Positions 20,166 through 37,312 of a stretch of 64,000 bases of DNA are shown here, one piece after another (position 1 is the first letter of the stretch; every line of letters begins with the position of its first letter). The stretch is from the NCBI GenBank assembly GCA_963823995.1, contig CAWGNQ010000006.1:503685-567684 (forward strand), given 5' to 3'. The stretch is from an uncultured Acidobacteriota bacterium. GTDB taxonomy: Bacteria; Acidobacteriota; UBA6911; RPQK01; JAPXNP01. The notes beneath the pieces were generated by a model that worked only from the letters and a program-made list of their open reading frames with translations, ran no database searches and was not told the DNA's origin. A program made the position numbers and the translations under genes.

Positions 20166-21443
20166 TCAGCTCTGGAAGAGGACGAGAGTGTTCGGAGGAA
20201 TCTGGGCGTCATTGATCTCGTCGCCGCTGAGGATCGTCCCGTCGGGCAGGCGATAGAAGGTCGATGGATAGTTCCACTTGCGTCCGGCAATTCGGGAGGG
20301 CAGCCGGTTTCGCTTGACGTGCCCGCCGTAGACGTACCCGACCAGAACTCGGGTTCCGGCAGGCAGCGACTCGAGCAGGCGCCGGGTCGAGCGCCTTCGA
20401 TACAGGTCGTGACCGGTTCTCACCATGCCGCTGGGAAGCAGGTAGATGGTGGTGTTACTGTCGAACGCCTCCCCCGCGATTTCATGTCCGCTCTCTCCCA
20501 GTTTTGCTTCGACGAAACCTTCGAAACTCGACTCGTCTTCCTGAGAGACCAAGACAGCGGTGCCCACGGGTATCTGACCCCAGTCCGTAATCTGGTCGCC
20601 GGACTGACGGGTCCCGTTCGGGAAGATGTAGACCGTGTGAGCGCTGTCGTACTGGTCGCGCGCAATGTACCAGGCGGTGCGTCGGGCCGTGATGACATTC
20701 TCGTCGCTGCCGGCGGGCGTGCCGGCAGCCGCGACCCTGGAGGGAGCTGCCGATGCGACTCCTTCACGGAAATGGTAGAGGTAGTGTTGCAGCTCCACAT
20801 CAGCCACCTTGACCCTCCCGGCACGGACATCCGGATCGGATGAGGGACTCGCCGTCAATCCGAGTCTCTGGCGGACATCGGGCCGCGCGAAGATCATGCC
20901 GCATCGTTTCCGGCCACGGTGGTTGAAGGGATAGAAGCGGTTGGGGCGACCGTAGGCAACCATCGAGTGGGTAAGGACGTTCTTGTCCGGAATTTTGTAC
21001 AGGCTTTGCAGTTGTCGGAGAAGCTCCCGGACAGCCCGATACTGTGCGTCAGTGATGTCCTGGTCGTGGTACCCGACGATTTCGATCCCGATCGAGTAGT
21101 TGTCGATCGGGCCGTGACCCTCCCACATGCTCCTGCCTGCATGGGTCGCAATTTTCGACTTGTCGACGACCCGGTACACGCGTCCTTTCTTGGTCACGAA
21201 GTAGTGGGTTTCACCGCGACGCCAGACCTTCCGAAGCGAACCGGTCTCTCCGCCCTCCGTCGTGTGCAGGATGATGTACCTGGTGTGAGGACGTTTCGGA
21301 CGGACGCGGTTTCTGGGACTGAAGTGGTTGCGGATGTCCAGACTGGCGGCGAAGATCTGCGTTCCGGAGATGGCGGCCAGTCCGATCGCCGTACACCAGG
21401 CATGTCGAATGACATCTCTGCGCGAAACTTTCCCTGAATCCAT
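20166..21443 (-). CDS. Secreted amidase_2/PGRP-domain peptidoglycan amidase (N-acetylmuramoyl-L-alanine amidase-like) with a C-terminal repeat domain
   Basis: Amidase_2 core YIILHTTEGG...HYFVTKKGRVYRVV...ATHAG...NYSIGIEIVGYH...AQYRAVRELLRQL. N-terminal signal with an RR motif. The C-terminal ~200 aa hold paired YxxPxGTxxSGD repeats. Confidence 0.7.
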   Translation of the reverse strand: MDSGKVSRRDVIRHAWCTAIGLAAISGTQIFAASLDIRNHFSPRNRVRPKRPHTRYIILHTTEGGETGSLRKVWRRGETHYFVTKKGRVYRVVDKSKIATHAGRSMWEGHGPIDNYSIGIEIVGYHDQDITDAQYRAVRELLRQLQSLYKIPDKNVLTHSMVAYGRPNRFYPFNHRGRKRCGMIFARPDVRQRLGLTASPSSDPDVRAGRVKVADVELQHYLYHFREGVASAAPSRVAAAGTPAGSDENVITARRTAWYIARDQYDSAHTVYIFPNGTRQSGDQITDWGQIPVGTAVLVSQEDESSFEGFVEAKLGESGHEIAGEAFDSNTTIYLLPSGMVRTGHDLYRRRSTRRLLESLPAGTRVLVGYVYGGHVKRNRLPSRIAGRKWNYPSTFYRLPDGTILSGDEINDAQIPPNTLVLFQS

Positions 21444-21561: not shown

Positions 21562-22290
21562 CTACCACACTACGGTGCTGTTTCGCGGACCCAGCCGGAA
21601 GTAGAGCTGCCCCTGGAACGGAGTTCTATGCAGCGCTCCGGTGTCGTAGTCGACGATCTTTCGATCGAGAATGCGGAGTCCCGCCGCGTCAATCGTCCGG
21701 GCGATTTCAGCCGGGCTGAACAGGTAACCCCGACCGTGAAGCTTGCGGCTGCCGAAGACCAGGTCGAACTCTCTCGCACCGTTCTCGCTTCGGAAATGGA
21801 CGATGTCGTCGAGAAGGTTGCGGAACAGGGTTGTCCAGCCGTAGGCGCGGGCATTGTAACGATTGTGGACATCCATGTGCAGCGAGCCCCCCGGGGCCAG
21901 GAGGGAGGCCATCGTGCGGAGCGCCGCGACCCGCGCATCGAAGCCTCGAATGTGCCCGAGTACGTTCCACAGACAGGTCATGTTGTCGAAAGTCTGATCG
22001 GGAGGATGAAACTCCTCAATGGGGATGATATGGACACAGGAACATGATTTGCGGCAAAGGGACGCCATGGCCGGGCTCGGTTCGACCATCACCAGGCGCT
22101 CAATCCCGGCTCGGAGCACCAGCCGTTGTGCCCGGACCCCGTCTCCGGCGCCCACGTCGAGCAAGCTGTTTCCGGTCAGCCAGGGGGCGACGAGTCGATC
22201 GATGCTCGCCAGATACGCCGCGCGCCGTCCGGCGTATTCCCGAAAAAAGGGTGCGAGATCGTCATAGAACGCATCGGTTGAGCTCGTCAT
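21562..22290 (-). CDS. Class I SAM-dependent methyltransferase
   Basis: LLDVGAGDGVRAQRL (motif I) and MVEPSPAM (motif II). Divergent from the epimerase/aminotransferase/KamA gene run. Confidence 0.7.
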   Translation of the reverse strand: MTSSTDAFYDDLAPFFREYAGRRAAYLASIDRLVAPWLTGNSLLDVGAGDGVRAQRLVLRAGIERLVMVEPSPAMASLCRKSCSCVHIIPIEEFHPPDQTFDNMTCLWNVLGHIRGFDARVAALRTMASLLAPGGSLHMDVHNRYNARAYGWTTLFRNLLDDIVHFRSENGAREFDLVFGSRKLHGRGYLFSPAEIARTIDAAGLRILDRKIVDYDTGALHRTPFQGQLYFRLGPRNSTVVW

Positions 22291-22407: not shown

Positions 22408-23607
22408 ATGACCGGCAGCTTGCGTCGAATCGCATTCGTCACTACCTCGAGGGCCGACTACGGTCACCTCTACTGGCCCATGAAGGAGGTGCTGCAAGCT
22501 CCGCAGTTGGATCTGTCCCTGATCGTTCTCGGATCGCACCTGTCGCCCGAGTTCGGGCGAACCGTCGGAGAAATCGAACGAGACGGATTTCCGATCACCG
22601 ATCGCATCGAATGTCTGCTCAGTAGCGACAGTGACGTCGGGATGGCCAAGACCATCGGTTTGGCGACACTGAGTCTGGCCGAGGCGTTGGATCGACATCG
22701 ACCCGATCTGCTCGTCCTCATAGCCGACCGGTACGAAATGCTGGCCCCGGCATCGACCGCTCTGGCTCTCCGCATCCCCATCGTACATATCGAGGGTGGG
22801 GAAGTGAGCGAGGGAGCGATCGACGAAGCGGTCCGCAATGCCCTCACCAAATTGAGTCATATTCACTTGACGCCGACCGAAAGCTCGCGACGACGGGTTC
22901 TGGCGATGGGCGAGGAGTCTTGGCGGGTGCACCGGGTCGGCGCTCCTTCCCTCGATCACCTTTATCGGCGTCCGATTCCCGGACGGGAGGAGGTTGAGCG
23001 GGAACTCGGTGTCGATCTCGACATGCCGACGATCCTGGTTCTCTATCACCCTGTGACTCTGGCGCGGGACACTACGTTCGAGGCAGACTCGCTCTACGAG
23101 ATTCTGGCCGGGCTCGAACAGCAGATCCTGTTCTGTTTCCCCAATTCCGACGCCGGTAGTCGCGCACTGATCGAGCGGTCGCGAGTTTTTTGCCGGCATC
23201 ATCCAAAGGCCCGCCTGTTCGTAAATCTGGCACATTTGAAGTACTGGGCGCTGCTGCGACACGTCAGCCTCCTGGTCGGAAACTCGAGCAGCGGCATCAT
23301 GGAAACACCCTCGCTGTCCCTGCCGACGGTCAATGTAGGGATTCGGCAGCGTGGGCGGGAACGAGCCCGCAACGTCATCGACGTGGAATCGGAGCCCGAT
23401 GCGATTCGCAAAGGCATCCTGGAGGCGCTGCGACCTGAATTCCGCGCCTCGCTGGAGGGCCTGGTCAACCCCTATGGAGACGGGCATGCCTCCGAACGAA
23501 TCGTGCGGATCCTGAAAGAGGTCGAACTGGGGGACCGTCTCCTCATCAAGCCCGCGGTTCCGCTGATGCCTTCAGCCGAACCTGTTGCGGCCGTGCAGGA
23601 CCCATGA
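22408..23607 (+). CDS. UDP-N-acetylglucosamine 2-epimerase (hydrolysing), NeuC/LegG-like
   Basis: IAFVTTSRADYGHLYWPMKEVL, HLSPEFGRTVGEIERDGF, HIEGGEVSEGAIDEAVRNALTKLSHIHL and NSSSGIMETPSLSLPTVNVGIRQRGRE match the hydrolysing-epimerase family. Confidence 0.75.
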   Translation: MTGSLRRIAFVTTSRADYGHLYWPMKEVLQAPQLDLSLIVLGSHLSPEFGRTVGEIERDGFPITDRIECLLSSDSDVGMAKTIGLATLSLAEALDRHRPDLLVLIADRYEMLAPASTALALRIPIVHIEGGEVSEGAIDEAVRNALTKLSHIHLTPTESSRRRVLAMGEESWRVHRVGAPSLDHLYRRPIPGREEVERELGVDLDMPTILVLYHPVTLARDTTFEADSLYEILAGLEQQILFCFPNSDAGSRALIERSRVFCRHHPKARLFVNLAHLKYWALLRHVSLLVGNSSSGIMETPSLSLPTVNVGIRQRGRERARNVIDVESEPDAIRKGILEALRPEFRASLEGLVNPYGDGHASERIVRILKEVELGDRLLIKPAVPLMPSAEPVAAVQDP

Positions 23608-24755
23608 CGAAGGTTCCCCTTTCGTCACCCGATATTGGGCGCGAAGAGATCGAGGCGGTCGTCGACGTACTCGGCAGTGCGAGACTGAGCTGGGGTCCGC
23701 GGCTGAAGCAATTCGAAACAGAGTTCGCGCGATTTGTGGGACAGGAGTTTGCTGTTGGAGTCTCCAGCGGAACGGCCGCTCTGCACCTGAGTCTGCTGGC
23801 AGCCGGCGTCGGGGCAGGTGATCTGGTCGTAACCACTCCACTTTCCTTCATCAGCTCCGCCAACGCGGCATTGTACGTGGGTGCACGGCCCGTCTTTGTC
23901 GACGTCGAATCGAGGACAGGGAACCTCGATCCGAATCGGGTCTCCGATTGCGTTCGCAACCTACGCAGCGGCGGTCTGCCTGTTCGAGCCATTCTGCCCG
24001 TACATCTCTTTGGTCATCCCGCTGCAATGAACCCGCTTCTCGAAATTGCCCGGGAGAACGATCTGCTCGTCATCGAGGACGCATGTGAAGCATTGGGTTC
24101 CGAATATCGGGGGCGACAGGTCGGCAGCTTCGGGCATGCATCCGCCTTTGGGTTCTATCCGAACAAGCAGTTGACAACCGGCGAGGGAGGCATCGTCGTC
24201 ACCTCGGATCCAAAATGGGCCGACCTGTTCGAGTCTCTGCGAAACCAGGGGCGGGGCACCGGCTCGTCCGAGGCTGTGGCGGTCCGCCTCGGCTACAACT
24301 ACCGGCTGAATGAGCTGAGCGCCGCGCTCGGACTGGTCCAGTTGCGGCGATTCGACGATCTGCAACGGAAGCGCGCACGGGTCGTCGAATGGTACAGGCA
24401 GCGTCTCGAGGGCATCCATGGCATCGGACTTCCGGAGGTCCTGCCGGAAGCGACTCGAATGTCCTGGTTTCTCTTCCGTGTGATTCTGAGTGGTCCCGAG
24501 GAACGCGCGAGAGTCGAAGGCGCCTTGGCAGAGCGTGGCATTCCATCCCGCGGATACTTCACGCCGATTCACCTGCAGCCTTACTATCGGGAGCATTTCG
24601 GATTTCAGTCGGGCATGTTTCCAATCGCGGAACGTCTGGGAGGTTCTTCCCTGGCGCTTCCCTTTTCCAGCGTCATGACCGAGCAGCAGGTCGACATGGT
24701 CTGCCACGAACTCCGCCAGGTGTTCGAATCGCAGCGCCTGCATGCCGGTCATTGA
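23604..24755 (+). CDS. DegT/DnrJ/EryC1/StrS-family PLP-dependent sugar aminotransferase
   Basis: FAVGVSSGTAALHLSL, VIEDACEALGSEYRGRQVGSFG and SFYPNKQLTTGEGGIVVT (the PLP-lysine region). Overlaps the epimerase by 4 nt (ATGA). Confidence 0.8.
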   Translation: MTKVPLSSPDIGREEIEAVVDVLGSARLSWGPRLKQFETEFARFVGQEFAVGVSSGTAALHLSLLAAGVGAGDLVVTTPLSFISSANAALYVGARPVFVDVESRTGNLDPNRVSDCVRNLRSGGLPVRAILPVHLFGHPAAMNPLLEIARENDLLVIEDACEALGSEYRGRQVGSFGHASAFGFYPNKQLTTGEGGIVVTSDPKWADLFESLRNQGRGTGSSEAVAVRLGYNYRLNELSAALGLVQLRRFDDLQRKRARVVEWYRQRLEGIHGIGLPEVLPEATRMSWFLFRVILSGPEERARVEGALAERGIPSRGYFTPIHLQPYYREHFGFQSGMFPIAERLGGSSLALPFSSVMTEQQVDMVCHELRQVFESQRLHAGH

Positions 24756-24959: not shown

Positions 24960-26360
24960 ATGAGACACGTTCGAATGACCGAAAGGAGGAGCGCTACCGC
25001 GCCGTCGATGCCGGCTCGCGAAAGCGAAGCCGAGCTCGACCATCCTCCGCCCCTTCCGACCGCTACGGTGTCCGCACGCTCCGCGCCGACACCATCGGAT
25101 TCTTCTCCTTTTCCCGCAAGACAACCGTTTCCGCAGGCTCAGTGGGCCGACTGGCGCTGGCAGTTGCGTCATCGCATCCGGTCGGTCGAACAGCTCCTGG
25201 AGTATTTTCCCGGAGTCCAGGAAACGGACGCCTTGAGGCAGGCCTCGGACCGATTCCCTCTGGCCGTTACGCCCTACTATGCCTCACTCATCCGCAGCGT
25301 CGGGGTCGACGACCCGGTCTACCAGATGGCGGTGCCCCAAGTCGGAGAGCTCTTCGACGGACCGTTTCTCACCGAAGACCCACTGTCCGAGGATGAAGAC
25401 ATGCCGGTCCCCGGTCTGGTCCATCGCTACCCGGACCGAGCACTTCTGATTGCGACGTCCGCGTGTGCGGTCTACTGTCGTCACTGTACGCGTAAACGGG
25501 TCACGGGCCACCGGGAAACCATGATCAGCCGCACCGATCTGGACCTCGTCATCGGGTATCTGCGGCAGCACCCGGAAATTCGGGATGTCATCGTCTCGGG
25601 CGGAGATCCGCTGACTCTGGCTACCGAGGTACTGGAAGAGATCCTCGCCGCCCTGCGTGCCGTGCCGTCCGTGGAGATCATCCGGATCGGCACCCGAACT
25701 CCGGTGACACTGCCCATGCGCATCACCGATGAGCTCGTCGAGATGCTGCGGCGCTACCACCCGGTCTTCGTCAATGCGCACTTCAATCATCCGGTGGAAC
25801 TGACGGCCGACTCAACCGAGGCCTGCCTCAGACTCGCGGACGCAGGCATTCCCCTCGGCAATCAGTCGGTCCTGCTGCGGGGGGTCAATGATTCCCCACT
25901 GGTCCTCGAGACGCTCTTCCGGTCTTTGTTGCGCATTCGAGTGCGTCCGTACTATCTGTTTCAGTGTGACCTCGTGAGAGGAGTCGAGCATTTCCGTACG
26001 CCCATTTCGAGGGGATTGGAGATCATGGAGTACCTGCGGGGCCGGTTGAGCGGTCTGGCAATTCCGACCTTTGTCGTCGATGCTCCACACGGCGGTGGAA
26101 AGATCCCCCTGCTGCCGACCTATATTCTCTCCATGAGCCCGACCCACACGGTACTGCGCAACTTCGAGGGGCTGATCGTCTCCTATCCGGAACCGGCCGC
26201 CGCGGAGCTCCAGCTTCCCGGTTCGGCCCGCGACGGGACGCGGGGGGGAGTCTGGGAGGTTGCCACAGGAAGGCGGTCCCACCTGCAGCCGGAACAGATG
26301 GAGCGGCAGGAGCGACGGTCCGCGAATGGGCGATCTCGTCGGACAGGTGAACCTCGATGA
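24960..26360 (+). CDS. KamA-family radical-SAM 2,3-aminomutase (lysine 2,3-aminomutase-like) with a Pro/Ser-rich N-terminal extension
   Basis: Radical-SAM CAVYCRHCTRKR (CxxxCxxC), VIVSGGDPL, and the KamA core WQLRHRIRSVEQL...LLRGVNDSP...YYLFQCDLVRGVEHFRT. The substrate (lysine, glutamate or arginine) cannot be read from the sequence by eye. Confidence 0.8.
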   Translation: MRHVRMTERRSATAPSMPARESEAELDHPPPLPTATVSARSAPTPSDSSPFPARQPFPQAQWADWRWQLRHRIRSVEQLLEYFPGVQETDALRQASDRFPLAVTPYYASLIRSVGVDDPVYQMAVPQVGELFDGPFLTEDPLSEDEDMPVPGLVHRYPDRALLIATSACAVYCRHCTRKRVTGHRETMISRTDLDLVIGYLRQHPEIRDVIVSGGDPLTLATEVLEEILAALRAVPSVEIIRIGTRTPVTLPMRITDELVEMLRRYHPVFVNAHFNHPVELTADSTEACLRLADAGIPLGNQSVLLRGVNDSPLVLETLFRSLLRIRVRPYYLFQCDLVRGVEHFRTPISRGLEIMEYLRGRLSGLAIPTFVVDAPHGGGKIPLLPTYILSMSPTHTVLRNFEGLIVSYPEPAAAELQLPGSARDGTRGGVWEVATGRRSHLQPEQMERQERRSANGRSRRTGEPR

Positions 26361-28099
26361 TTCGGATTCGCCGGGTCTACAGCACAGCGCTCTCCGTCGA
26401 TCGACAGCGCCTCGATCAAGTTCGGCAGATCTTCCGGGCGAACTTTCCTTCGGTGGCCGGATATGCCGACACGCTGGCCCACAAGCTCGATCATCCGTTC
26501 AAATACGGCTATCGTACCTTCCTGCTGGTCAGTGAATCGTCGCTCGCCAAGGTCACCGGATTCTCGCTTTTGCTTCATTTGCCGGAGGTCAACAGCACGG
26601 TCCTCGACTTCATCGCGGTCGGTCGAACGATTCGAGGCGGTGGCGTCGGCACTGCCCTCTACGAGTCCACGCAAAGTTACCTGAAATCCATCGGTTCACG
26701 AGGTCTCTACATGGAGGTGCTCCCGGATGATCCCGCGGTCGTCAAGGATCGCCGCGAACTGAGGGAGAATCGGCGTCGACTCGCTTTCTACGAAGCCCAC
26801 GGTGTTTTTCCGGTCATCGGAACCGAATATGAAACGCCCATCGACGAGTCGCCCGCACCCTATCTGCTGTTCGATCCCCTCGGCCGTAAGGGGCCTCTCC
26901 GCCGATCCGAGGCGCGGAACGTCGTACGCCTTCTGCTGGAGCGCAAGTACTCACACGTGGTTCCACCGGCCTATATCGAGCGGGTCGTCGAGTCCTTCAC
27001 GGATGATCCGGTGCGCATGCGGGAGCCGCGCTATGGCGGCGAGAAGCCCGGCCAGGCAATTCCGCGGGTTTCCGGGAGCGAGTTGCTGGCGCGCCCTTTC
27101 ATCCTGGTTTACGATGATCGGCACCGCGTCCACCATGTCCGTGAGCGGGGCTATGTCGAACGCCCGGCGCGCGTCAAGGCGCTGGTCGAGTCACTGCGGC
27201 CGACCGAGCTCTTCAATGTCGAGGCGCCCCGGAATCACGGCGAGAGTGCGATCCGGAGGGTCCATGACGGTGGTTTCGTCTCATATCTGAAGGCCGTCTG
27301 CCGGACCCTGGAGCAGGCGAAGCCGGTCTATCCGTACGTCTTCCCGATCCGACGCCCCGACCGTAAACCCCGGGAGCTGGCCATCCGTGCGGGCTATTAC
27401 TGCATCGATACGTTTACTCCGCTCGACCGGAATGCCTATGAAGCCGCCCGGGCCTCGGTCAATGTGGCCCTGTCCGCCATGGAAAAGCTGATTCGGGACG
27501 GGTCCGGACTCGCCTATGCTTTGTGCCGGCCACCCGGTCACCATGCCGAGCGCAAGGCATTCGGAGGTTTCTGCTATTTCAACAACGCGGCGATTGCCGC
27601 CAGTGAGCTGAGCCGTTTGGGGCCGGTCGCGCTGCTCGACCTCGATTTTCACCACGGAAACGGAACGCAGGACATCTTCTATCGACGATCGGACGTCTTG
27701 ACCGTTTCGGTTCATGGACATCCGAATTACGCCTATCCCTATTTCTCCGGCTTCGGCGATGAGACGGGCGAAGGGGAGGGGAAGGGCTTCAACTTCAATT
27801 TTCCTCTGCCGGAGGAGTCCGGACCCGAGCGTTACTTCGAAACGCTGCAGAAAGCTCTCAAACAGGTTCATCAGTTCAAGCCTCGTTTCCTCGTTGTTTC
27901 GCTCGGCTTCGACACGATGACGGGAGATCCCACCGGGGCCTTTCTGCTGACGGCGGCCTCCCTCCGGGAAATCGGTCGTCGATTGGGGCGCCTGAACCAC
28001 CCGACCCTCGTCGTGCAGGAGGGTGGCTACAACCTGCGTAACCTTCGCCGGGGTGCTGTTGCGTTCTTTTCGGGTTTTGGAGAGGCATTGTGGACCTGA
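26357..28099 (+). CDS. Fusion protein: N-terminal GNAT acetyltransferase plus C-terminal class-II HDAC-like / acetylpolyamine amidohydrolase deacetylase
   Basis: N-terminal GNAT motif A DFIAVGRTIRGGGVGTALYE. C-terminal HDAC signatures CRPPGHHAERKAFGGFCYFNNAAIAA and LDLDFHHGNGTQDIF with the downstream GFDTMTGDP. Overlaps the kamA-like gene by 4 nt. Confidence 0.75.
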   Translation: MIRIRRVYSTALSVDRQRLDQVRQIFRANFPSVAGYADTLAHKLDHPFKYGYRTFLLVSESSLAKVTGFSLLLHLPEVNSTVLDFIAVGRTIRGGGVGTALYESTQSYLKSIGSRGLYMEVLPDDPAVVKDRRELRENRRRLAFYEAHGVFPVIGTEYETPIDESPAPYLLFDPLGRKGPLRRSEARNVVRLLLERKYSHVVPPAYIERVVESFTDDPVRMREPRYGGEKPGQAIPRVSGSELLARPFILVYDDRHRVHHVRERGYVERPARVKALVESLRPTELFNVEAPRNHGESAIRRVHDGGFVSYLKAVCRTLEQAKPVYPYVFPIRRPDRKPRELAIRAGYYCIDTFTPLDRNAYEAARASVNVALSAMEKLIRDGSGLAYALCRPPGHHAERKAFGGFCYFNNAAIAASELSRLGPVALLDLDFHHGNGTQDIFYRRSDVLTVSVHGHPNYAYPYFSGFGDETGEGEGKGFNFNFPLPEESGPERYFETLQKALKQVHQFKPRFLVVSLGFDTMTGDPTGAFLLTAASLREIGRRLGRLNHPTLVVQEGGYNLRNLRRGAVAFFSGFGEALWT

Positions 28100-28174
28100 T
28101 GGATTCCGGGCGGTGAACTGCCTGTTCCGATACCGAATCGATCGGCGGCCGCTTTACCAGGGGGCGATAGGGCA

Positions 28175-29164
28175 ATGAAGACAGGTCTGGTCTACGATCT
28201 ACGCGATGACTATCTGGCCGAAGGCTGGACGGCCGAAGAGGCGGCTGAGTTCGATTCCGTGTCGACGATCGACGCACTCGTGGAGGCATTGGGCACTCTG
28301 GGGCACGATGTCGAGCGGATCGGGCATGCTCGGCGCCTTTGTGCCCGAATCGTCGAGGGTGCTCGATGGGATCTCGTCTTCAATATCGCGGAGGGCGTGA
28401 AGGGGAGAAGTCGCGAGGCTCAGGTTCCGGCCCTGCTCGAACTGTTCGACATTCCCTATACTTTTTCCGATCCGCTGGTCTGTGCGGCAACCCTCGACAA
28501 AGCCGTTGCGAAGCGGCTGGTCCGTGATGCCGGTCTGCGGACGCCTGATTTCGTTGTTCTCCGCAACCCTGCGGAGATTGCGTCGGTCGACCTGGTTTTT
28601 CCGCTCTTCGTCAAGCCTCTTGCGGAAGGAACGGGGAAGTGGATCGACTCGACTTCAAGGGTCGAGGATCACGAGGGTCTGCAGAGCGTCTGCATGAGTC
28701 TCCTGGCCCGCTCCGGCCAGCCCGTTTTGGTCGAGGAGTACCTCCCGGGTCGGGAGTTTACGACGGGGATCGTCGGTACCGGCTCCCGGGCACAGATCGT
28801 TGGCAGCATGGAGATCACCATCCGCCAGAGCGCCGGAACGGCCGATTATTCCTACACAGTCAAGCAGGAGTGGCGGGAGTTGTGCGACTATCCCGTCCTG
28901 GAGCCGGGAGGGCTGAAGGACGAGGTCGAGAGACTCGCACTGGATTCCTACCTCGCCCTCGAGTGCCGGGACTTGGCCCGGGTGGACCTGCGGCTGGATC
29001 GCGACGGACGCCCCTCCTTCGTCGAGATCAATCCGCTGCCGGGCTTGAATCCCGTCTATTCCGATTTGCCGATTCTCTCGCGCCTGAACGGATGGGAGTA
29101 CGTTGACATCATTCGGGCGGTCGTGGACAGTGCCCTGGAACGGCATGAAGGAGGTGGGCGATGA
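28175..29164 (+). CDS. ATP-grasp ligase, D-alanine-D-alanine ligase (Ddl)-like
   Basis: FPLFVKPLAEGTGKWI, VLVEEYLPGREFTTGIVG and RVDLRLDRDGRPSFVEINPLPGL are ATP-grasp motifs of Ddl-type amino-acid ligases. 329 aa. Confidence 0.7.
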   Translation: MKTGLVYDLRDDYLAEGWTAEEAAEFDSVSTIDALVEALGTLGHDVERIGHARRLCARIVEGARWDLVFNIAEGVKGRSREAQVPALLELFDIPYTFSDPLVCAATLDKAVAKRLVRDAGLRTPDFVVLRNPAEIASVDLVFPLFVKPLAEGTGKWIDSTSRVEDHEGLQSVCMSLLARSGQPVLVEEYLPGREFTTGIVGTGSRAQIVGSMEITIRQSAGTADYSYTVKQEWRELCDYPVLEPGGLKDEVERLALDSYLALECRDLARVDLRLDRDGRPSFVEINPLPGLNPVYSDLPILSRLNGWEYVDIIRAVVDSALERHEGGGR

Positions 29165-30699
29165 AGCCGGCTGAGGTCCTGATTCTCCACAACCTGCCGG
29201 CGGAGCAACCAGCTGTGGGCCTGGAGCGATTTCCGGAATCGGATGAGGGGGTTCTCCGTGAGGCAGCTGCGGTCGCAGACGCCCTTGTGCGGCTCGACGT
29301 CGGATTTCGCAGGGCCGGCGTTCGCACCTTCGAAGACGTGGTCAGTGCCGTCTCGGGAGGGAGAGAATGGCTGGTCGTGAACCTCGTCGAGAGTCTGGGG
29401 GCTGATGCCGCCGACGCCTGCTACGTCCCGATGGTGTGTCGTGCTTTGGGGCGGCAGTTCACCGGAAGTGACAGCCGTTGTCTTGCGATGACCCTGGACA
29501 AGAATCTGGCGAAGTGCGTCTTGCGGTCGCAGGGTGTGCGGACGCCGCAATGGCTTTTCGTGCCTCGCGGCAGTGACGTCGTGACGCACCCGGATCTCGT
29601 TTTTCCGGTCATCGTCAAGCCGGTCGCCGCGGATGCCAGCGAAGGCATCGACCCGGCTTCTGTCGTGAGGCAGCCGGGCATGGAACTGGTGTCGGCCATC
29701 CGGAGGATCCACGAGCGGATGGGACAGGACGCCCTGATCGAGGAGTTTGTGGCGGGCAGAGAATTCAATATTTCGCTTCTTCAGCGAGGCACCGCTCTCG
29801 AAGTCCTGCCGCCGGCGGAGATCGAGTTCGTCGACTTTCCGGCGGGAAAGCCTCGTATTGTGGACTATGCGGCCAAATGGCTTCCCGCCACCTTCGAGTA
29901 CCGGAACACGGTTCGAAAGGTCCCTGCCGAAGTGGACGGACCTCTGGCAAGCGAGATCCGATCGATCGCCCTGGCCGCTTGGGCCGCGGCCGGATGCGGA
30001 GACTATGCGCGGGTGGATCTGAGACTCGACGGCCAGGGAGTGCCGTTTGTCCTTGAAGTGAATGCGAACCCCGATATTTCCCCGGATGGCGGTTTTTCGG
30101 CGGCTCTCGAGGCCGCCGGTGTGACGTTTGCGGACTTTGTGGCGAGTCTCCACGAGAATGCTTCGGCCCGAAGGCGTCCCCTGCAGCTACCGACTCGACG
30201 GATCACGGTCGATGACCGTCTTCGGATTCGCAGGACCGAGGCCGGTGACCGGGACGGGATCGTCAGCCTTCTTTCGGCGACGGGCTTTTTCAAACCGGAC
30301 GAGCTCACGGTCGCAGCTGAAGTGCTTGACGGGACCGTTGCACCGGACAGCACGCATTATCAGTCCTACACGTGCGAGCAGGACGGTTTTCCGGTCGGGT
30401 GGGTCTGCTGGGGCCCCACACCCTGCACGCAGGGAACGTTCGATCTCTACTGGCTGGCAGTCTCGCCGCTCGAGCAGGGGAGGGGCATCGGGAGGCTTCT
30501 GATGCAGTTTGCCGAGGAAAGCATCCGGGACCAGGGTGGGAGGATCATCGTGGTCGAGACCGCCGGCCGCTCGGAGTACGCACCGACGCGGGCGTTCTAT
30601 ACGAGAATCGGCTACTGGGAGCAGGCAAGACTGGTCGACTTCTATGCTCCCGGTGACGACAAGGTCCTTTTCACGAAGCAGTTTCCGCTCGGTGTCTGA
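29161..30699 (+). CDS. Fusion protein: Ddl-like ATP-grasp ligase plus C-terminal GNAT acetyltransferase
   Basis: ATP-grasp: FPVIVKPVAADASEGI, LIEEFVAGREFNISLL and RVDLRLDGQGVPFVLEVNANPDIS. The C-terminal ~170 aa form a GNAT (LAVSPLEQGRGIGRLLMQFA). Overlaps the previous gene by 4 nt. Confidence 0.75.
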   Translation: MKPAEVLILHNLPAEQPAVGLERFPESDEGVLREAAAVADALVRLDVGFRRAGVRTFEDVVSAVSGGREWLVVNLVESLGADAADACYVPMVCRALGRQFTGSDSRCLAMTLDKNLAKCVLRSQGVRTPQWLFVPRGSDVVTHPDLVFPVIVKPVAADASEGIDPASVVRQPGMELVSAIRRIHERMGQDALIEEFVAGREFNISLLQRGTALEVLPPAEIEFVDFPAGKPRIVDYAAKWLPATFEYRNTVRKVPAEVDGPLASEIRSIALAAWAAAGCGDYARVDLRLDGQGVPFVLEVNANPDISPDGGFSAALEAAGVTFADFVASLHENASARRRPLQLPTRRITVDDRLRIRRTEAGDRDGIVSLLSATGFFKPDELTVAAEVLDGTVAPDSTHYQSYTCEQDGFPVGWVCWGPTPCTQGTFDLYWLAVSPLEQGRGIGRLLMQFAEESIRDQGGRIIVVETAGRSEYAPTRAFYTRIGYWEQARLVDFYAPGDDKVLFTKQFPLGV

Positions 30700-30945: not shown

Positions 30946-31293
30946 TCAGCGCGAGGCGTGGGCCGCCTGTTGAATGGGCATACCCGCTTCCCGCCAGGCC
31001 TTCATCCCGCCTTCATAGCGGTCGACATGCTCGTAACCTTCCGACTCCAGTTTCTTGGCGGCGGTTTCGGAGGCCGTACAGTCGGACCCGGCACAGTAGA
31101 CGACGATTCGGTGCTCCTTATTCTCCGCTCGTCTGCCGACTTCTCTCAGGAAATCTTCGCGTTCGAGCGGAATGTTCAGTGAGCCCGGAATATGTCCCTC
31201 ATCAAAACTATCCTCGCCCAGCACGTTGATCAAAAGGAAGTCCTCTTTGCGCTTTCTCATATCTTTCAATTCGTCAGTTGACAGCTTTCTCAT
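30946..31293 (-). CDS. Single-domain rhodanese-like sulfurtransferase
   Basis: 115 aa; FLLINVLGEDSFDEGHIPGSLNIP...IVVYCAGSDCTAS (rhodanese active-site loop with Cys). GGAAGGAAAGG Shine-Dalgarno 5 nt upstream of the ATG. Confidence 0.7.
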   Translation of the reverse strand: MRKLSTDELKDMRKRKEDFLLINVLGEDSFDEGHIPGSLNIPLEREDFLREVGRRAENKEHRIVVYCAGSDCTASETAAKKLESEGYEHVDRYEGGMKAWREAGMPIQQAAHASR

Positions 31294-31600
31294 AATGACC
31301 TTTCCTTCCTGATCCTCTGTGACGATAAGTCACATTGGATCATATATTTAAATGATCATATATCTATGTTTCCGAAAATTCGTTGCGAGCACTGTAAAGT
31401 GCCATTTACATAGTCATACAACCAACAAATTAATTATATCAATGGATAGGTCGCATTTCAAAGATGGCTTTGCTGACGTCGAGTCACAGTCACACCACAG
31501 CTCATATAGCATCACAGCCGTGATGATCGGAGGCACCCCGCTCTGTCGCGGGCCGGGTTCGGCGACGCGACACCGCTTCACTGAGGTACTTCTCGCGCTA
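31294..31600. other. AT-rich ~300-bp non-coding spacer between the encapsulin and rhodanese genes, carrying the direct repeats GATCATATAT (31339-31348 and 31354-31363)
   Basis: GC content is strikingly lower than the surroundings. There is no convincing ORF (the listed 107-aa and 77-aa ORFs have no support). A 7-bp inverted repeat TGTCGCG...CGCGACA lies at ~31539-31567, just 3-prime of the encapsulin stop. Confidence 0.5.
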
Positions 31601-32404
31601 TTGCGTCTTCCACTGAATGGGAATGACGGCTGTGCCGTCGAGGACACGAAACGTGAATGTCTCGGTGAAGTATAGCTGGACCTTCCTGGTGTCGTGGTGG
31701 TGGTAGCCGATGGCCAAGTCCTGCCCCAAGGTCAGCTTCATGTCCCCGCCGCGCAAGGAGACGAGCACGGTCTCCTGGAGGAACGGACTGAGGATGATCG
31801 GATTCCCGAGCAGCCGTTCGAGGTGCGTCTTCAGCGGGTAGCACTGGTTGTGTTCGCTGATGCCCTGCCAGAGCTTCGAACCGGCGACCAGAACGTAAGG
31901 CCCATCCACGCCGTTCCGAGCGAATTTGGTGATCCCCACTGCTACGGCCTCGAGCAGGTTTGCGGGATCACCGGAAAAGCTGAGTTCGTCGTACTTGCTG
32001 CACTCGCGCAGACCTTTGATCCCACCGGCGGAAAAACCGTGGTAGATCGCCTGTTCTTCGAACATCGCGATCTTGCGGGCGGCATCTTCCAGGGGGAGGA
32101 GATCGATCGCCTCGTCGCCCCGGGAGGCATTGTCCAGCTCCCAGACATCCAGTTCGAAAAGAATACGAGACTCGATGAGGGGACGAACGGCTCGGATTCC
32201 AAATCCGACTTCTCCCATCGAGGCCTCGTCGGCGTTTGTAAGGCGGCCCAGGGGAACGGCCGAGTAGTCCCATCCGTGGGGACCTGCCACATCGACGATC
32301 CGACGTCCGGACAGGGATGCCCGCAGGACCTCCTGTGCTCGGTGGTCGATGGACTTCCAAGCGGCTTCGGTGATGGGTGCGAGTTCTCTTCTCAAGATGT
32401 TCAT
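31598..32404 (-). CDS. Family 1 encapsulin nanocompartment shell protein (linocin M18-like, HK97 fold)
   Basis: MNILRRELAPITEAAWKSIDHRAQEVLRASLSGRRIVDVAGPHGWDYSAVPLGRL...ILFELDVWELDN...GPYVLVAGSKLW...GQDLAIGY...QLYFTETFTFRV aligns along its whole length with T. maritima-type encapsulins. AAGGAG Shine-Dalgarno 6 nt upstream. Confidence 0.9.
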   Translation of the reverse strand: MNILRRELAPITEAAWKSIDHRAQEVLRASLSGRRIVDVAGPHGWDYSAVPLGRLTNADEASMGEVGFGIRAVRPLIESRILFELDVWELDNASRGDEAIDLLPLEDAARKIAMFEEQAIYHGFSAGGIKGLRECSKYDELSFSGDPANLLEAVAVGITKFARNGVDGPYVLVAGSKLWQGISEHNQCYPLKTHLERLLGNPIILSPFLQETVLVSLRGGDMKLTLGQDLAIGYHHHDTRKVQLYFTETFTFRVLDGTAVIPIQWKTQ

Positions 32405-32439: not shown

Positions 32440-32799
32440 CTATTCGTTCAGTTCCCTGAGACCACCGATGCTCAGCCCCTCTCCCGGAGATCCTCCTTCA
32501 GCTGAATCCGAGTCCTCTCCGATCGAGGTGATGTCTCCCTCGGTAAACAGGTAGGTGTGCATTCGTGCGTCCCAGCCCGGCATGTTGCGTCGCAACCATT
32601 CGAGCGTCATGCAGGCATGTTCCATTTCCTCGTCTCGATTGTGGGCGAGGATGGCCTTCAGCTCCTCGTTGTCGGACGATGCGATACGCTGCTGGTACCA
32701 GTCTACAGCTTCGACTTCCTCGATCAGACTGCGCAGGGCCCGTACGTAATCGCGGTCCTGCTCAGACATTTGCTCCGGCGGCTCGTGGTAATCGGTCAT
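32440..32799 (-). CDS. Encapsulated ferritin-like cargo protein (EncFtn/Flp) with C-terminal encapsulin targeting peptide
   Basis: The start is set at the internal ATG 32799 (GGGAGG Shine-Dalgarno 5 nt upstream). EEVEAVDWYQQRIASSDNEELKAILAHNRDEEMEHACMTLEWLRR is nearly identical in pattern to characterised EncFtn proteins. The C-terminal EGLSIGGLRE matches the GSLxIGSL cargo-loading motif. Confidence 0.85.
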   Translation of the reverse strand: MTDYHEPPEQMSEQDRDYVRALRSLIEEVEAVDWYQQRIASSDNEELKAILAHNRDEEMEHACMTLEWLRRNMPGWDARMHTYLFTEGDITSIGEDSDSAEGGSPGEGLSIGGLRELNE

Positions 32800-33070
32800 C
32801 TGAACCTCCCGTCGGTTTGTTGGATTTTCAATCGGCGGCGGTGTGAGCCCAACGACTCTCGAATCGAGCCCTGCTGGCAAGCGGAAAAAGTTGTCTACAA
32901 ATGACTTACATGGTGCCGCCGCTTTCAGTATACAGAGCTGCGGAGGAAACCGACAAGCGATGGGGACGAATACCGGAGAGCGCCACCCCGACTTGCCAAC
33001 TCCGGCCCGGGCCGGTCGCCAAGGGCTGAGGAGTTCCTGGAAAGGAGACCGGAGCCTGGAAACGGGAAAA

Positions 33071-35517: not shown

Positions 35518-35614
35518 TGCGCCCGAGTCTAACAGTCCTCGTCGCGAAATCGCCAGCGAAAGCGGGTCGGGAGCGGAGGGAGCCGTGAGTTCCCGGCGCT
35601 GCTTCCGATCTTCG

Positions 35615-37312
35615 TCAGTACCGTTCTTGCCCGGGGAGCAGCGGATCCAGAGGGGAGGCATACCAGGAAGATCCTCCCTCGACCAGGTTCCAGCCCCAGT
35701 CGACCGAGAGGCCCAGGCCCAGAGGCGTACGCACTCGTAACTCGACTCCGGCATCTGCAAGCCAGCCCTGTGACCGTGGCGTACGCGGTGCTCCCCACGC
35801 CCTTCCAAAATCGAGAAACGGGGCCAGTTCGATGTCGAGCAGGCCGTTGCTCCACAGCCGCTTCTCGATTTCCGAGCGGACCAGATGCTTCCGCGTACCG
35901 AACGGGGCATTGCCTTTGAATCCGTCGAATGTAGCGATGTGGCCACGCAATCCCGTGGGATCATCACGGTCGAATCCGATGAAGAAGAGCGCATCGAGGG
36001 CCGGAGAGCCTCCAATAACGCCGCCCCGATAGGCCAGCCCCACCCGCCAGTCGAGCTCTCCCGGATCGAGATACGCGGATAGATCTGCGCCTCCTTCAAA
36101 CCGGATCATCCGCGTGCGCCGGCCAGCCAGGGTGCCTCTGCCGGTCAAGCGGCCGAGTGCCCTCAGCTCGAGCCGGTGCTTCGGCAGGTAGACCAGAGTT
36201 CTTTCGAGGCTCGTAGAATATTCGAGTGACCAGCCGTTCCAGTGCAAGGCGCCGGGCGTCGGCTCATGACTCCCGAAATTGAATTTCCTCCACACCAGGC
36301 GGGGGCCGCCGGACCAGTGCCAGCGGGCACCCGGGATCCAGTCGAGCTGAAAGCCGATCGACCTGTGCTCGAGCCCATAGACAGGAAACTGCCCGTTGCG
36401 ATCGGGTCCGTTGCCCCGCAGCTTCCAGTCCTCGTCTCGGAGGTCGGTTCCGAGAGACCAGCGCCACTGAGGATGGAGGGCAAACGGCCTTTCCAGGCGG
36501 CTCAGTAGCCTCTCTTTGCGAGCATCCCAACGAAAGAGCGTGTTGAGGTTCATCGCGGCTCGGTCCAGGTTGAACAAATCGGCGTGGATCGTCTGGTAGG
36601 GAAGTCCGCGCGCTGCCGAAAACAGCGCAGACTTCCTTCCGCCGAGCAAACCACGTCGTTCGAGCGCCGAAACGATGACCGTGAATCTCGAGTCCCGGTC
36701 CGGGTCGAGGCGGACGTTCAGACCCGTGTAAAGATGGAGTGTCGTCAGCTCCGCCAGCGTGTCGCGCAGCTCCTGCAATCGAAGAGTCTCTCCGGGTACG
36801 ATCGGAATGAGCCGGTTCCGGAGCAGAGGATCCAATCGCGTCCCCGACTCCAGTCTGACCCCCGAGATTTTCGGCTTGTCGATTCGATTCCAGAACTCCA
36901 AAGTCGAGGGGAGGTCTCCGCTGAGATAGCAGGTCGTACCGAGAAGGTCGAGGGCATAGGGATCTCCCGGGTTGAGGTGTAGGGCCCGCTCGACAAATCG
37001 TCGGGCCCGGTCCAGGTCACGGACTGTAAATGCCAACCCTCCCAGCTCGAGAGGAAAGCGGTAGTCGTCCGGAAAGCGCTCGCGCCCCGTTTCGAGGGTC
37101 GACCTGGCCGATTCGCTCCGGCCCAAACGAGCCTCCGCGAGCCCCCGGTAGTAGAGGACATCGGCGGCAGGAAGCGGCAGCCCGTCGGTCAGTTGCAGCA
37201 CTTCGTTCCAGCGCCCTGCCTGTGCGAGCCGACGCAGATCCTCGCGGTCCTCGGAAGGCCCGGCAAGCAGGGTACACGTAAGACTCAGAAGCAGAACTGT
37301 GCTGCGGAGCAT
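35615..37312 (-). CDS. TPR-repeat protein with a C-terminal outer-membrane beta-barrel-like domain (Omp85/ShlB-like)
   Basis: Signal MLRSTVLLLSLTCTLLAG. TPR-like helices (YYRGLAEARLG, RALHLNPGDPYALDLLG). The C-terminal half is rich in alternating hydrophobic/aromatic beta-strand patterns and ends in an aromatic residue. Domain family is an inference. Confidence 0.5.
   Translation of the reverse strand: MLRSTVLLLSLTCTLLAGPSEDREDLRRLAQAGRWNEVLQLTDGLPLPAADVLYYRGLAEARLGRSESARSTLETGRERFPDDYRFPLELGGLAFTVRDLDRARRFVERALHLNPGDPYALDLLGTTCYLSGDLPSTLEFWNRIDKPKISGVRLESGTRLDPLLRNRLIPIVPGETLRLQELRDTLAELTTLHLYTGLNVRLDPDRDSRFTVIVSALERRGLLGGRKSALFSAARGLPYQTIHADLFNLDRAAMNLNTLFRWDARKERLLSRLERPFALHPQWRWSLGTDLRDEDWKLRGNGPDRNGQFPVYGLEHRSIGFQLDWIPGARWHWSGGPRLVWRKFNFGSHEPTPGALHWNGWSLEYSTSLERTLVYLPKHRLELRALGRLTGRGTLAGRRTRMIRFEGGADLSAYLDPGELDWRVGLAYRGGVIGGSPALDALFFIGFDRDDPTGLRGHIATFDGFKGNAPFGTRKHLVRSEIEKRLWSNGLLDIELAPFLDFGRAWGAPRTPRSQGWLADAGVELRVRTPLGLGLSVDWGWNLVEGGSSWYASPLDPLLPGQERY

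Follow-up and report, generated by a model that had tools for sequence, protein, structure and literature searches.

A GNAT acetyltransferase fused to an ApaH-like deacetylase is a conserved, accessory partner of a lysine 2,3-aminomutase/ATP-grasp ligase module

INTRODUCTION

AcuA and AcuC, a GNAT acetyltransferase and an HDAC-type deacetylase that control acetyl-CoA synthetase, are separate proteins, and AceK and GlnE are single-chain regulators with opposing activities. In Bacillus subtilis, the yodT-yodS-yodR-yodQ-yodP-kamA operon encodes a lysine 2,3-aminomutase together with the GNAT YodP and the deacetylase YodQ, an M20/ArgE-type peptidase family member that is separate from the GNAT and is not of the HDAC type; the same operon carries transaminase and CoA-transferase genes and no ATP-grasp ligases. 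Ngg, a fusion of a GNAT and an ATP-grasp domain, makes N-acetylglutaminylglutamine, an N-acetylated peptide osmolyte.

The bacterial acetylpolyamine amidohydrolases (ApaH) constitute "cluster 4" in the classification of Graf et al. 2024 (PMC11532494). Here, we analyze a fusion of a GNAT domain to a deacetylase of the ApaH-like branch, encoded within a 64,000-nucleotide (nt) stretch of DNA (the window) from an uncultured Acidobacteriota bacterium. Each half is a member of a thoroughly studied superfamily, and we found no literature that describes or assays a single chain with opposing acetyl activities, nor any on this fusion or on the aminomutase/ligase/GNAT module that accompanies it.

RESULTS

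A single open reading frame encodes an acetyltransferase and a deacetylase

The fusion gene directly follows, and overlaps, a gene for a lysine 2,3-aminomutase:

24960..26360, + strand, lysine 2,3-aminomutase (KamA/AblA-like radical SAM enzyme; Pfam Radical_SAM and LAM_C), core module gene
26357..28099, + strand, GNAT-deacetylase fusion gene, 580 amino acids (aa) in a single chain

The fusion reading frame is intact and open over 580 codons, and its ATG overlaps the TGA stop of the aminomutase gene as ATGA, which confirms the 4-nt overlap reported in a preliminary description of this DNA. All of the motifs quoted there are found in this frame: IAVGRTIRGGGVGTALYE at aa 86-103, RPPGHHA at aa 391-397, GFCYFNN at aa 404-410, DLDFHHGNGTQ at aa 428-438, and GFDTMTGDP at aa 517-525. 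The domain layout given in that description needs revision in two details: the deacetylase core spans about 330 aa (aa 249-580) instead of the proposed 400, and the GNAT core of about 165 aa is followed by a conserved helical extension. The AlphaFold model of the whole chain has a pTM of 0.85.

A frameshift or misassembly joining two genes had been raised as a way in which the single-polypeptide claim could fail. Relatives that span the full length number more than 120; they are 571-614 aa long and share 58-82% identity with the fusion, and at least 568 species genomes match its residues 1-578 at 47-65% identity. Because full-length relatives occur in so many genomes and phyla with their catalytic residues kept, the fusion is not an artifact. 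It is, as judged from sequence, a real and conserved bifunctional enzyme, kept under selection, in which both domains look catalytically competent.

Relatives of the fusion and of its neighbors are currently annotated as "histone deacetylase family protein," "AcuC-like," "D-alanine--D-alanine ligase," and "ablB," all four of which are probably misleading. A PADLOC search for anti-phage defense families returned zero matches for the four proteins compared.

The N-terminal domain retains the acetyl-CoA loop and a candidate catalytic pair

The N-terminal part of the chain consists of a GNAT fold and a family-specific extension:

26357..26851, + strand, GNAT acetyltransferase core, aa 1-165, with the GNAT alpha/beta fold
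26633-26650, + strand, GNAT motif A RGGGVG, aa 93-98, acetyl-CoA pyrophosphate loop (Q/R-x-x-G-x-G/A)
26777-26803, + strand, GNAT motif B RLAFYEAHG, including Y145
26852..27040, + strand, family-specific extension, aa 166-228, with one strand, two helices, and a DDPV..R.PRY motif

The assignment of this domain to the GNAT family holds by profile search by a small margin (PF00583; score, 23.3 bits; cutoff, 20.7); many fusion relatives likewise have PF13508 or PF00583, and an NCBIfam search with the fusion GNAT gave no family match. The nearest structures include RimI and Ard1, which are protein N-terminal acetyltransferases. Across 78 relatives, G96, G98, D124, and F144-Y145-E146 are invariant and E120 is Glu in 77. 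E120 is the candidate general base. E120 and Y145 align with the catalytic positions of RimI (WLEV and LYE), and conservation of this pair predicts acetyl-CoA-dependent N-acetyl transfer.

The low profile score and the lack of an NCBIfam family could also be read to mean that catalysis is confined to one of the two domains, the GNAT serving, for instance, as an acetyl-CoA/CoA sensor or as a scaffold that regulates the deacetylase or dimerizes with it. In keeping with such an arrangement, the L1 lid of the deacetylase is shortened (see below), and the N-terminal part may have assumed a structural function where substrates enter the deacetylase. Retention of the acetyl-CoA loop glycines and of the Glu/Tyr pair in all or nearly all of the 78 relatives, drawn from many phyla, makes it most improbable.

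The extension has invariant residues of its own (L170, D173, L194, Y206, and R222 among 38 diverse relatives), has a pLDDT above 90 in both predicted models, and matches no PDB sequence. A short low-confidence linker separates it from the deacetylase domain, for which it is probably an interface.

The neighboring genes encode a beta-lysine-forming enzyme and two divergent ligases

The aminomutase aligns with PDB entry 2a5h (E, 4.5e-136), scores 315.6 bits against the KamA family model TIGR00238 (cutoff, 199.2), and falls just under the cutoff of the AblA model TIGR03820 (506.3 against 525.4 bits). In the 2a5h alignment it keeps the CxxxCxxC motif, D293, D330, and K337 of the Clostridium enzyme (CAVYCRHC, GGGK, QCD, and VVDAP). 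D293 and D330 bind the epsilon-amine of lysine, and K337 is the pyridoxal phosphate (PLP) lysine. Since the epsilon-amine-binding residues are kept, beta-lysine is likely a building block of the pathway.

Downstream of the fusion lie the remaining module genes:

28175..29164, + strand, ATP-grasp ligase 1 (Ddl-like; Pfam Dala_Dala_lig_C, E 3.3e-24), core module gene
29161..30195, + strand, ATP-grasp ligase 2 (Ddl-like paralogue; Pfam Dala_Dala_lig_C, E 1.6e-22), aa 1-345 of the ORF 29161..30699, core module gene
30196..30699, + strand, core module GNAT (Pfam Acetyltransf_1, E 9.7e-11), aa 346-512, fused to ligase 2

Ligase 1 keeps the DdlB catalytic set (K97, K144, E180, E187, K215, R255, D257 in 40 of 41 sequences, E270, and N272), as does ligase 2. 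We compared the Ddl substrate positions E15, S150, Y216, and S281/L282: across the two ligases, Y216 becomes E or W, L282 becomes D or G, and S150 becomes T or A. In ligase 1, position 216 is mostly E and D replaces L282; ligase 2 has A for S150, W for Y216, and D or C for G276, substitutions that indicate a substrate pocket different from that of ligase 1. Both proteins fall under every NCBIfam Ddl cutoff (best scores, 143 and 106 bits against 243). Given these scores and the altered substrate residues, we rejected true D-alanine--D-alanine ligase identity and refer to them as Ddl-like ligases.

The core GNAT is a separate gene in many other genomes (e.g., locus L003). It matches PDB entry 2r7h, a structural-genomics "putative D-alanine N-acetyltransferase of GNAT family," with an E value of 7e-33; the fusion N-domain is only about 19-21% identical to that entry. 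The NCBIfam AblB model, which we take to be TIGR03827, matched neither domain at E values up to 10, and both gave only weak RimI or generic GNAT hits.

The fusion is widespread and is an accessory to the module

Genomes with the fusion belong to Planctomycetota, Spirochaetota, Desulfobacterota, Dehalococcoidia, Nitrospirota, Bacteroidota, Calditrichota, and Proteobacteria. The architecture had been called unusual, which is so relative to characterized enzymes only, for the fusion is common among environmental anaerobes.

We examined well-flanked loci, defined by at least 5 kb on each side (44 seeded with the fusion and 27 with Ddl1). Fusion-seeded loci contained the aminomutase in 32 of 44 cases (73%), two ATP-grasp genes in 30, and the core GNAT in 31, with the order of the module genes reshuffled among phyla; the remaining 12 had no module gene within 5-10 kb, and the fusion may thus also act independently of the module. 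Additional gene fusions tie the same parts together, joining the N-type GNAT and deacetylase to a core-type GNAT (P0136 and P0156) or a Ddl-like ligase to an N-type GNAT (P0168). The proposed link to a beta-lysine pathway is strengthened by this shuffled yet conserved neighborhood and by these fusions, with beta-lysine itself standing as a likely building block.

The reverse search gave a different picture. All 27 Ddl1-seeded loci had the aminomutase, and only 2 had the fusion within 10 kb of the module, the distance at which absence was judged; the other 25 are modules of aminomutase, ligase(s), and GNAT without it. No other neighbor was conserved except a TetR regulator. Phylogenetically, aminomutases of fusion-bearing modules are interspersed with those of fusion-less ones, and the two sorts reach 79-82% identity. 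Given these absences and this interleaving, the fusion is an accessory enzyme, and an obligatory protection and deprotection step is not supported.

This result bears directly on the model put forward in the preliminary description, in which an acetyl group would protect an amine, for example of beta-lysine, during ligation and the deacetylase would then unmask it. The fusion would on that model be an obligatory biosynthetic step. Acetyl protection is known from arginine biosynthesis (ArgA/ArgE), from puromycin biosynthesis, and from Pseudomonas beta-lysine catabolism via N6-acetyl-beta-lysine, and these precedents, the ATGA coupling to the aminomutase gene, and the conserved synteny would all suit such a cycle. 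An obligatory cycle is not borne out: close relatives differ in carrying the fusion, fusion-less modules have no conserved substitute deacetylase nearby, and the module already has a GNAT of its own. We consider this model quite unlikely.

The deacetylase domain resembles ApaH and differs at polyamine-binding positions

The C-terminal domain carries a complete zinc-dependent deacetylase active site:

27101..28096, + strand, zinc-dependent deacetylase of the ApaH-like branch, aa 249-580
27539-27544, + strand, His dyad H395-H396
27644-27652, + strand, zinc ligands D430 and H432
27911-27913, + strand, zinc ligand D519
27929-27937, + strand, family signature P525-T526-G527
28028-28030, + strand, catalytic tyrosine Y558 (GGY motif)

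This domain matches PF00850 with an E value of 3.8e-75, and H395, H396, D428, D430, H432, D519, and Y558 are invariant in the 78 relatives. In both sequence and fold it is most similar to ApaH enzymes, to which its identity is roughly 50% by eye on the printed alignment; our references were PsApaH (9gkz), Marinobacter APAH (6phr), and Mycoplana ramosa ApaH (MrApaH; 3q9b). The fusion and ApaH have in common the His-His dyad, the Asp-His-Asp zinc site, and the GGY tyrosine. The extended L2 loop that confers polyamine specificity in ApaH is kept with an alignment gap of a single residue, and R332 within it (ApaH R95) is invariant across the 78 relatives. The aromatic tunnel residues have counterparts as well, F405 for ApaH Y168 and Y460 for ApaH F225. 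The AlphaFold model has low confidence in several active-site loops (aa 328-352 and 393-405).

Several other positions differ. The PIS gatekeeper motif of ApaH (PEG in HDAC10) is replaced by P525-T526-G527, invariant in the 78 fusion relatives. MrApaH E106, which lies at the end of L2 and binds the distal polyamine nitrogen, corresponds to A342 (A, P, or S in 76 of 78), and MrApaH E117 corresponds to F353 (F in 76 of 78). The Arg95-Asp163 salt bridge between subunits of the head-to-head ApaH dimer is not conserved, with K400 in place of D163 (63 of 78 relatives have R or K). In the alignment with PsApaH, the stretch facing the L1 hairpin has 7 fewer residues in the fusion, and the model has low confidence there (aa 260-268). 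Only the fusion has an N-terminal GNAT and extension, and the gene contexts differ as well, being beta-lysine for the fusion and polyamine catabolism for ApaH. PsApaH itself has His at the MrApaH E106 position.

These replacements weaken the earlier suggestion of an acetylpolyamine substrate. General polyamine homeostasis, in which putrescine, cadaverine, and spermidine would be acetylated and deacetylated with no specific tie to beta-lysine, draws on the identity of the best solved relatives and on the roughly one-quarter of well-flanked loci that lie away from the module. With the ApaH residues for polyamine charge binding and specificity replaced, the L1 hairpin shortened, nearly three-quarters of the loci adjoining the beta-lysine module, and no polyamine biosynthesis or transport genes recurring near the fusion, we regard this role as very unlikely.

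Graf et al. equate Gly117 of PsApaH with the peptide-backbone-binding Asp101 of HDAC8 (PMC11532494), and the fusion residue aligned with Gly117 is Phe353. This residue, the retained L2 loop and its arginine, and the closeness to ApaH predict a deacetylase of the small-molecule type. The same features count against a protein substrate, which other observations would accommodate. A writer/eraser of protein lysine (or N-terminal) acetylation could act on a pathway enzyme, for example on the catalytic lysine of a ligase or of the aminomutase, and switch the module off and on in the manner of AcuA and AcuC acting on acetyl-CoA synthetase, with both activities in one polypeptide as in AceK or GlnE. 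A patchy accessory distribution is typical of regulators, opposing activities are both conserved on one chain, RimI and Ard1 are among the nearest GNAT structures with E120 and Y145 at RimI catalytic sites, and JGI labels relatives "AcuC-like/GNAT." ApaH enzymes, moreover, keep some activity toward acetyl-lysine peptides (PMC11532494). The deacetylase is nevertheless nearest to ApaH and not to AcuC or HdaH, and the covalent fusions to parts of the biosynthetic module fit a pathway enzyme at least equally well; we consider a protein switch unlikely.

DISCUSSION

The reading that we tentatively favor, as quite possible if short of probable, is that the fusion is an accessory tailoring, turnover, or switch enzyme that sets the acetylation of the module's beta-lysine product. 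For the substrates, the nitrogen acted on, the balance of the two activities, and the physiological role, we infer the following scheme. Lysine 2,3-aminomutase would supply beta-lysine, usually two different Ddl-type ATP-grasp ligases would form amide bonds, and the separate 2r7h-type GNAT would place an acetyl group onto a pathway compound, giving what is presumably an acetylated beta-lysine peptide. The deacetylase domain would then most likely N-deacetylate an acetamido-alkyl arm, either on the product or on a late intermediate, for which an N-epsilon-acetyl-beta-lysine moiety is the obvious candidate, and the fusion GNAT domain would acetylate a free amine on the same molecule. The net effect would be to fix or shift where the beta-lysine compound is acetylated and thereby to alter its charge; the compound could be an osmolyte or resemble a polycation.

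If both activities worked on one nitrogen, they would constitute a futile cycle unless regulated. In a bolder version of this scheme, which we hold to be rather doubtful, the single chain is a writer/eraser that toggles the acetylation, and with it the charge and activity, of an undiscovered beta-lysine metabolite made by the aminomutase, two-ligase, and GNAT module of anaerobic sediment bacteria, and the helical extension couples the two sites such that one is active at a time.

The module (aminomutase, usually two Ddl-like ligases, and GNAT) occurs in hundreds of species of Planctomycetota, Desulfobacterota, Spirochaetota, Dehalococcoidia, and others. Once its product is identified and the fusion's function understood, anoxic sediments could prove to contain a new compatible solute or polyamine-like metabolite. 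Such work could also establish a further class of substrates for ApaH-type deacetylases, marked by the PTG signature, supply a natural example of opposing activities held back from futile cycling, and correct the present annotations of the fusion and module proteins.

Comparison with the described systems places the locus among several of them. As in AblA/AblB-type pairs, an aminomutase gene, for which AblA is the best model, adjoins GNAT genes, and the difference is that neither GNAT matches the AblB model. Beyond such a pair, there are ATP-grasp ligases, usually two, and at this locus a deacetylase, so we expect a product more elaborate than acetyl-beta-lysine. The yod-kamA operon shares the combination of aminomutase, GNAT, and deacetylase, so acetylation and deacetylation around beta-lysine recur. 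The logic of Ngg matches the ORF at 29161..30699, with its ATP-grasp ligase and GNAT; Ngg differs in its ATP-grasp and GNAT subfamilies and in having no beta-amino acid and no deacetylase. The fusion resembles AcuA/AcuC in pairing a GNAT with a classical zinc deacetylase and differs in that AcuC falls in another deacetylase cluster (2c) and no protein substrate is indicated, and it resembles AceK and GlnE in combining addition and removal on one chain. A toggle of the kind outlined above would be a small-molecule counterpart of AceK or GlnE.

Organization of the probable fusion operon

The gene encoding the GNAT-deacetylase fusion lies second in a run of four that, judged from their sequence, look like a single operon, since we found no convincing terminator within 24960..30699 and terminator-like matches there fall below chance expectation.

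24960..26360, + strand, lysine 2,3-aminomutase (2a5h, E 4.5e-136)
26357..28099, + strand, fusion of a GNAT acetyltransferase to a zinc deacetylase (580 open codons)
28175..29164, + strand, Ddl-like ATP-grasp ligase 1
29161..30699, + strand, Ddl-like ATP-grasp ligase 2 fused to a second GNAT

The aminomutase conserves the radical-SAM CxxxCxxC motif, the PLP lysine, and D293 and D330, two residues that we take from the literature on these enzymes to bind the epsilon-amine of lysine. Its TGA overlaps the ATG of the fusion gene (ATGA), the 4-nt overlap reported in the preliminary description. In alignments with E. coli DdlB, the two ligase families retain the ATP-grasp catalytic set (K97, K144, E180, E187, K215, R255, D257, E270, and N272). 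At the substrate positions, they are unlike Ddl and unlike each other: ligase 1 has mostly E at Y216 and D at L282, and ligase 2 has A at S150, W at Y216, and D or C at G276. Given these differences, the two ligases would be expected to make two different amide bonds. The second GNAT, hereafter the core GNAT, is a close homolog of PDB 2r7h (E 7e-33), a structural-genomics protein with no assigned function. Its similarity to the N-terminal domain of the fusion (hhalign probability 95.9%, 21% identity) is at the ordinary GNAT-to-GNAT level, and we dropped the idea of a specific paralogy between the two.

Two further ideas were set aside. Some ablA genes carry Na+ or c-di-AMP riboswitches (PMC9337991), which could have served as a clue to physiology; Rfam had no match in the window and, over 12 module loci, gave a partial tRNA only. 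Membership in a defense system was dropped as well, as PADLOC returned no matches.

Immediately upstream of the operon (22408..24755, + strand) are a NeuC-type hydrolyzing UDP-GlcNAc 2-epimerase gene (TIGR03568, 424 bits, above the cutoff) and an overlapping gene for a PseC/LegC-like aminotransferase, which together resemble a portion of a pathway for nonulosonic acids or amino sugars. Across 81 related loci NeuC never occurs and a PseC-like match, a weak one, occurs once, so we regard the position of these sugar genes as incidental. Downstream of the operon are an ordinary rhodanese-domain gene (30946..31293, - strand) and a classical encapsulated-ferritin pair, with the encapsulin shell gene (31598..32404, - strand; Linocin_M18, E 6.9e-83) directly downstream of an EncFtn-like ferritin gene (32440..32880, - strand; E 2.7e-40). 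Other neighbors, all on the - strand, have no link to the fusion: a 994-aa protein of the GH5 cellulase family that carries CBM6/CBM35 modules (33115..36099), a PAS-domain histidine kinase (17746..20076), an Amidase_2 (N-acetylmuramoyl-L-alanine amidase) protein (20166..21443), and a SAM methyltransferase (21562..22290).

The fusion is intact, widespread, and conserved in both active sites

All of the motifs quoted in the preliminary description are present in the fusion protein.

aa 21-127, Acetyltransf_1 (Pfam, 23.3 bits against a threshold of 20.7, a slim margin)
aa 86-103, GNAT motif A
aa 267-572, Hist_deacetyl (Pfam, E 3.8e-75)
aa 391-397, RPPGHHA
aa 404-410, GFCYFNN
aa 428-438, DLDFHHGNGTQ
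aa 517-525, GFDTMTGDP

NCBIfam models gave zero matches to the protein. Between its two domains is a conserved, family-specific extension (aa 166-228) consisting of two helices and a DDPV..R.PRY motif, for which a PDB search returned nothing similar, followed by a short low-confidence linker. In the AlphaFold model (m36137018aa6e), confidence is very low at aa 328-352, the L2 loop, and at aa 393-405, which hold the invariant catalytic His pair; both of these deacetylase loops are very highly conserved in sequence all the same. Both loops may need a dimer partner, bound metal or substrate, or contact with the GNAT domain to become ordered.

Searching 5.8 billion proteins, we identified over 120 relatives of full length (571-614 aa) with 58-82% identity and 97-100% coverage, which carry names such as "histone deacetylase family protein," "GNAT family N-acetyltransferase," and "AcuC-like enzyme/GNAT." The cluster nearest to the window, 79% identical, has a member labeled Acidobacteriota, and labels of Phycisphaerae or Spirochaetes go with relatives further away. 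In a scan limited to one genome for each species, we counted at least 568 genomic matches. The best 80 of these share 47-65% identity across fusion residues 1-578 and are distributed across Planctomycetota (Phycisphaerae and Sedimentisphaerales), Spirochaetota, Desulfobacterota, Dehalococcoidia, Nitrospirota, Bacteroidota, Calditrichota, Lentisphaerota, and Proteobacteria. Relatives of the same length in so many phyla exclude a frameshift or mis-assembly as the origin of the fusion, and with it the prospect, raised earlier, that a corrected assembly would reveal two genes. One full-length fusion (L033, 47% identity) is on a contig labeled Nanoarchaeota archaeon with only a distant KamA-like gene (27%) nearby, which could be a binning error or horizontal transfer. 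Looking for the N-terminal domain as a stand-alone protein among 1.84 billion representatives, we obtained many matches of 100-300 aa that are indistinguishable from contig-end fragments.

We then compared 78 full-length relatives from many phyla. In the GNAT domain, G96 and G98 of the acetyl-CoA loop, D124, and Y145 are invariant, and position 120 is Glu in 77 of the 78; E120 and Y145 correspond in the alignment to the WLEV and LYE positions in RimI. Deacetylase residues H395, H396, D428, D430, H432, D519, and Y558 are likewise invariant. With their catalytic residues conserved, both domains look catalytically competent, and a GNAT domain without catalytic function is, of the explanations considered here, highly improbable.

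The deacetylase has its own specificity signature

The best solved relatives of the deacetylase domain by sequence are acetylpolyamine amidohydrolases (ApaH), namely, 6phr from Marinobacter (E 3.5e-75), 9gkz (PsApaH), 3men, and 3q9b (Mycoplana ApaH). Graf et al. 2024 (PMC11532494) described the defining features of ApaH "cluster 4," and we transferred these to the fusion family via the printed alignments.

ApaH features and their counterparts in the fusion family
Extended L2 loop and Arg95: retained, R332 invariant
N-terminal L1 hairpin: 7 residues shorter
Glu106, which in Mycoplana ApaH binds the distal nitrogen of the polyamine: A342 (A/P/S in 76 of 78)
Glu117 in Mycoplana ApaH, which is Gly117 in PsApaH: F353 (Phe in 76 of 78)
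Asp163, dimer salt-bridge partner: K400 in the window (R/K in 63 of 78)
Gatekeeper motif, PIS in ApaH and PEG in HDAC10: invariably PTG, P525-T526-G527

The equivalent of position 353 in HDAC8 is Asp101, which grips the peptide backbone (Graf et al., PMC11532494). With ApaH features partly kept and partly replaced, the domain combines ApaH architecture with a specificity signature of its own. This signature argues against classical polyamines as substrates and, more weakly, against proteins. The earlier suggestion that the fusion acts on acetylpolyamines thus loses ground, as the residues with which ApaH binds polyamines are replaced. A part in general polyamine homeostasis is improbable, disfavored both by these residues and by the genomic context described below. 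A protein-acetylation switch acting on the enzymes of the pathway is also unlikely, though the best placed of the alternatives.

The fusion is an accessory to a beta-lysine module

To place the fusion in its genomic context, we examined 44 loci from genomes, collected with the fusion as the seed and flanked on both sides by 5 kb or more. An aminomutase is nearby in 32 of these, two ATP-grasp genes in 30, and a core GNAT in 31; the remaining 12 lack any module gene. These frequencies back the proposal that the fusion shares a pathway with the aminomutase and ATP-grasp genes. Gene order and orientation vary by phylum, and the core GNAT may stand alone or be fused, as would be expected if the genes were linked by function and not inherited together as a block. 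Additional fusions bind parts of the module together: P0136 (762 aa) and P0156 (738 aa) join an N-type GNAT, the deacetylase, and a core-type GNAT, and P0168 (540 aa), possibly truncated by a contig end, reads as a Ddl-like domain followed by an N-type GNAT. No gene recurs beside the stand-alone fusions, whose neighbors include components of ABC transporters, CorA, a sulfatase, a methyltransferase-type DNA-binding protein, and an unrelated GNAT.

Seeding with ligase 1 gave a different picture. Among 27 metagenomic loci flanked on both sides by 5 kb or more, all have an aminomutase, 23 have two ATP-grasp genes and 4 have one, and 22 have a core GNAT, yet only 2 have the fusion. In addition, aminomutases of fusion-bearing and fusion-free modules, with the fusion scored in 10-kb neighborhoods of the module, interleave in sequence (for example, L004/L085, 79% identity; L081/L108, 81.5%; L043/L138, 78%). 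This asymmetry and interleaving identify the aminomutase, ligase(s), and GNAT as the core and the fusion as an accessory gene that has been repeatedly gained or lost. The fusion is functionally tied to the module, yet dispensable for the module's existence.

The ligase 1 loci that appear to have a single ATP-grasp gene beside the aminomutase (L109, L135, L144, and L154) may represent a simpler form of the module. No other deacetylase recurs beside the module; the sole recurrent extra gene encodes a TetR regulator, found in 8-9 Phycisphaerae-type loci. In many Planctomycete-type versions of the module it is directly upstream of the aminomutase, as in L004 (8003-8608) and 7-8 further Phycisphaerae-type loci and also in L085, L089, L091, and L093-L095. 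In the window, which lacks the regulator, sugar genes occupy that place.

These results divide the earlier interpretation. A bifunctional-looking fusion tied to the module stands; an obligatory cycle of protection and deprotection on the beta-lysine amine is rather improbable with the fusion in 2 of 27 ligase 1 loci. We tentatively favor, with confidence just short of balanced, a role in which the fusion sets or relocates an acetyl group, and hence the charge, of a beta-lysine compound made by the module. The deacetylase domain would strip acetyl from an acetamido-alkyl arm of the product or a late intermediate, whereas acetyl would be added by the GNAT domain to a free amine on that same compound. 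N-epsilon-acetyl-beta-lysine, for example, has an acetylated amino-alkyl chain like ApaH substrates but ends in a carboxylate or amide with no second cationic amine, which would fit the two lost acidic residues and the basic gain at position 400.

Comparison with known systems

Full-text searching, with incomplete coverage such that an earlier description is possible, turned up no publication on either the fusion or the module. The most comprehensive survey of bacterial deacylases does not discuss GNAT fusions, and in it GNATs come up only in the introduction and the reference list. The aminomutase of the module resembles AblA of the acetyl-beta-lysine pathway, but that pathway has no counterpart of the ATP-grasp ligases, and for neither GNAT of the locus did AblB appear among matches with E values as high as 10. 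A Pelobacter genome paper names an ablA/ablB pair by analogy only. AcuA/AcuC is a pair of a GNAT and an HDAC-type enzyme but consists of separate proteins acting on a protein substrate. The yodT..kamA operon of B. subtilis encodes an aminomutase, a GNAT, and a nonhomologous M20-type deacetylase, so acetyl on/off chemistry around beta-lysine has precedent. ApaH resembles the fusion deacetylase, yet the latter fails several features that define ApaH. The fusion is not categorically new: it brings known folds and chemistry together in an undescribed single-chain combination, bears a specificity signature of its own, and is attached to an uncharacterized pathway. It is also widespread, consistently mis-annotated, and open to experiment, and points to a putative beta-lysine metabolite.
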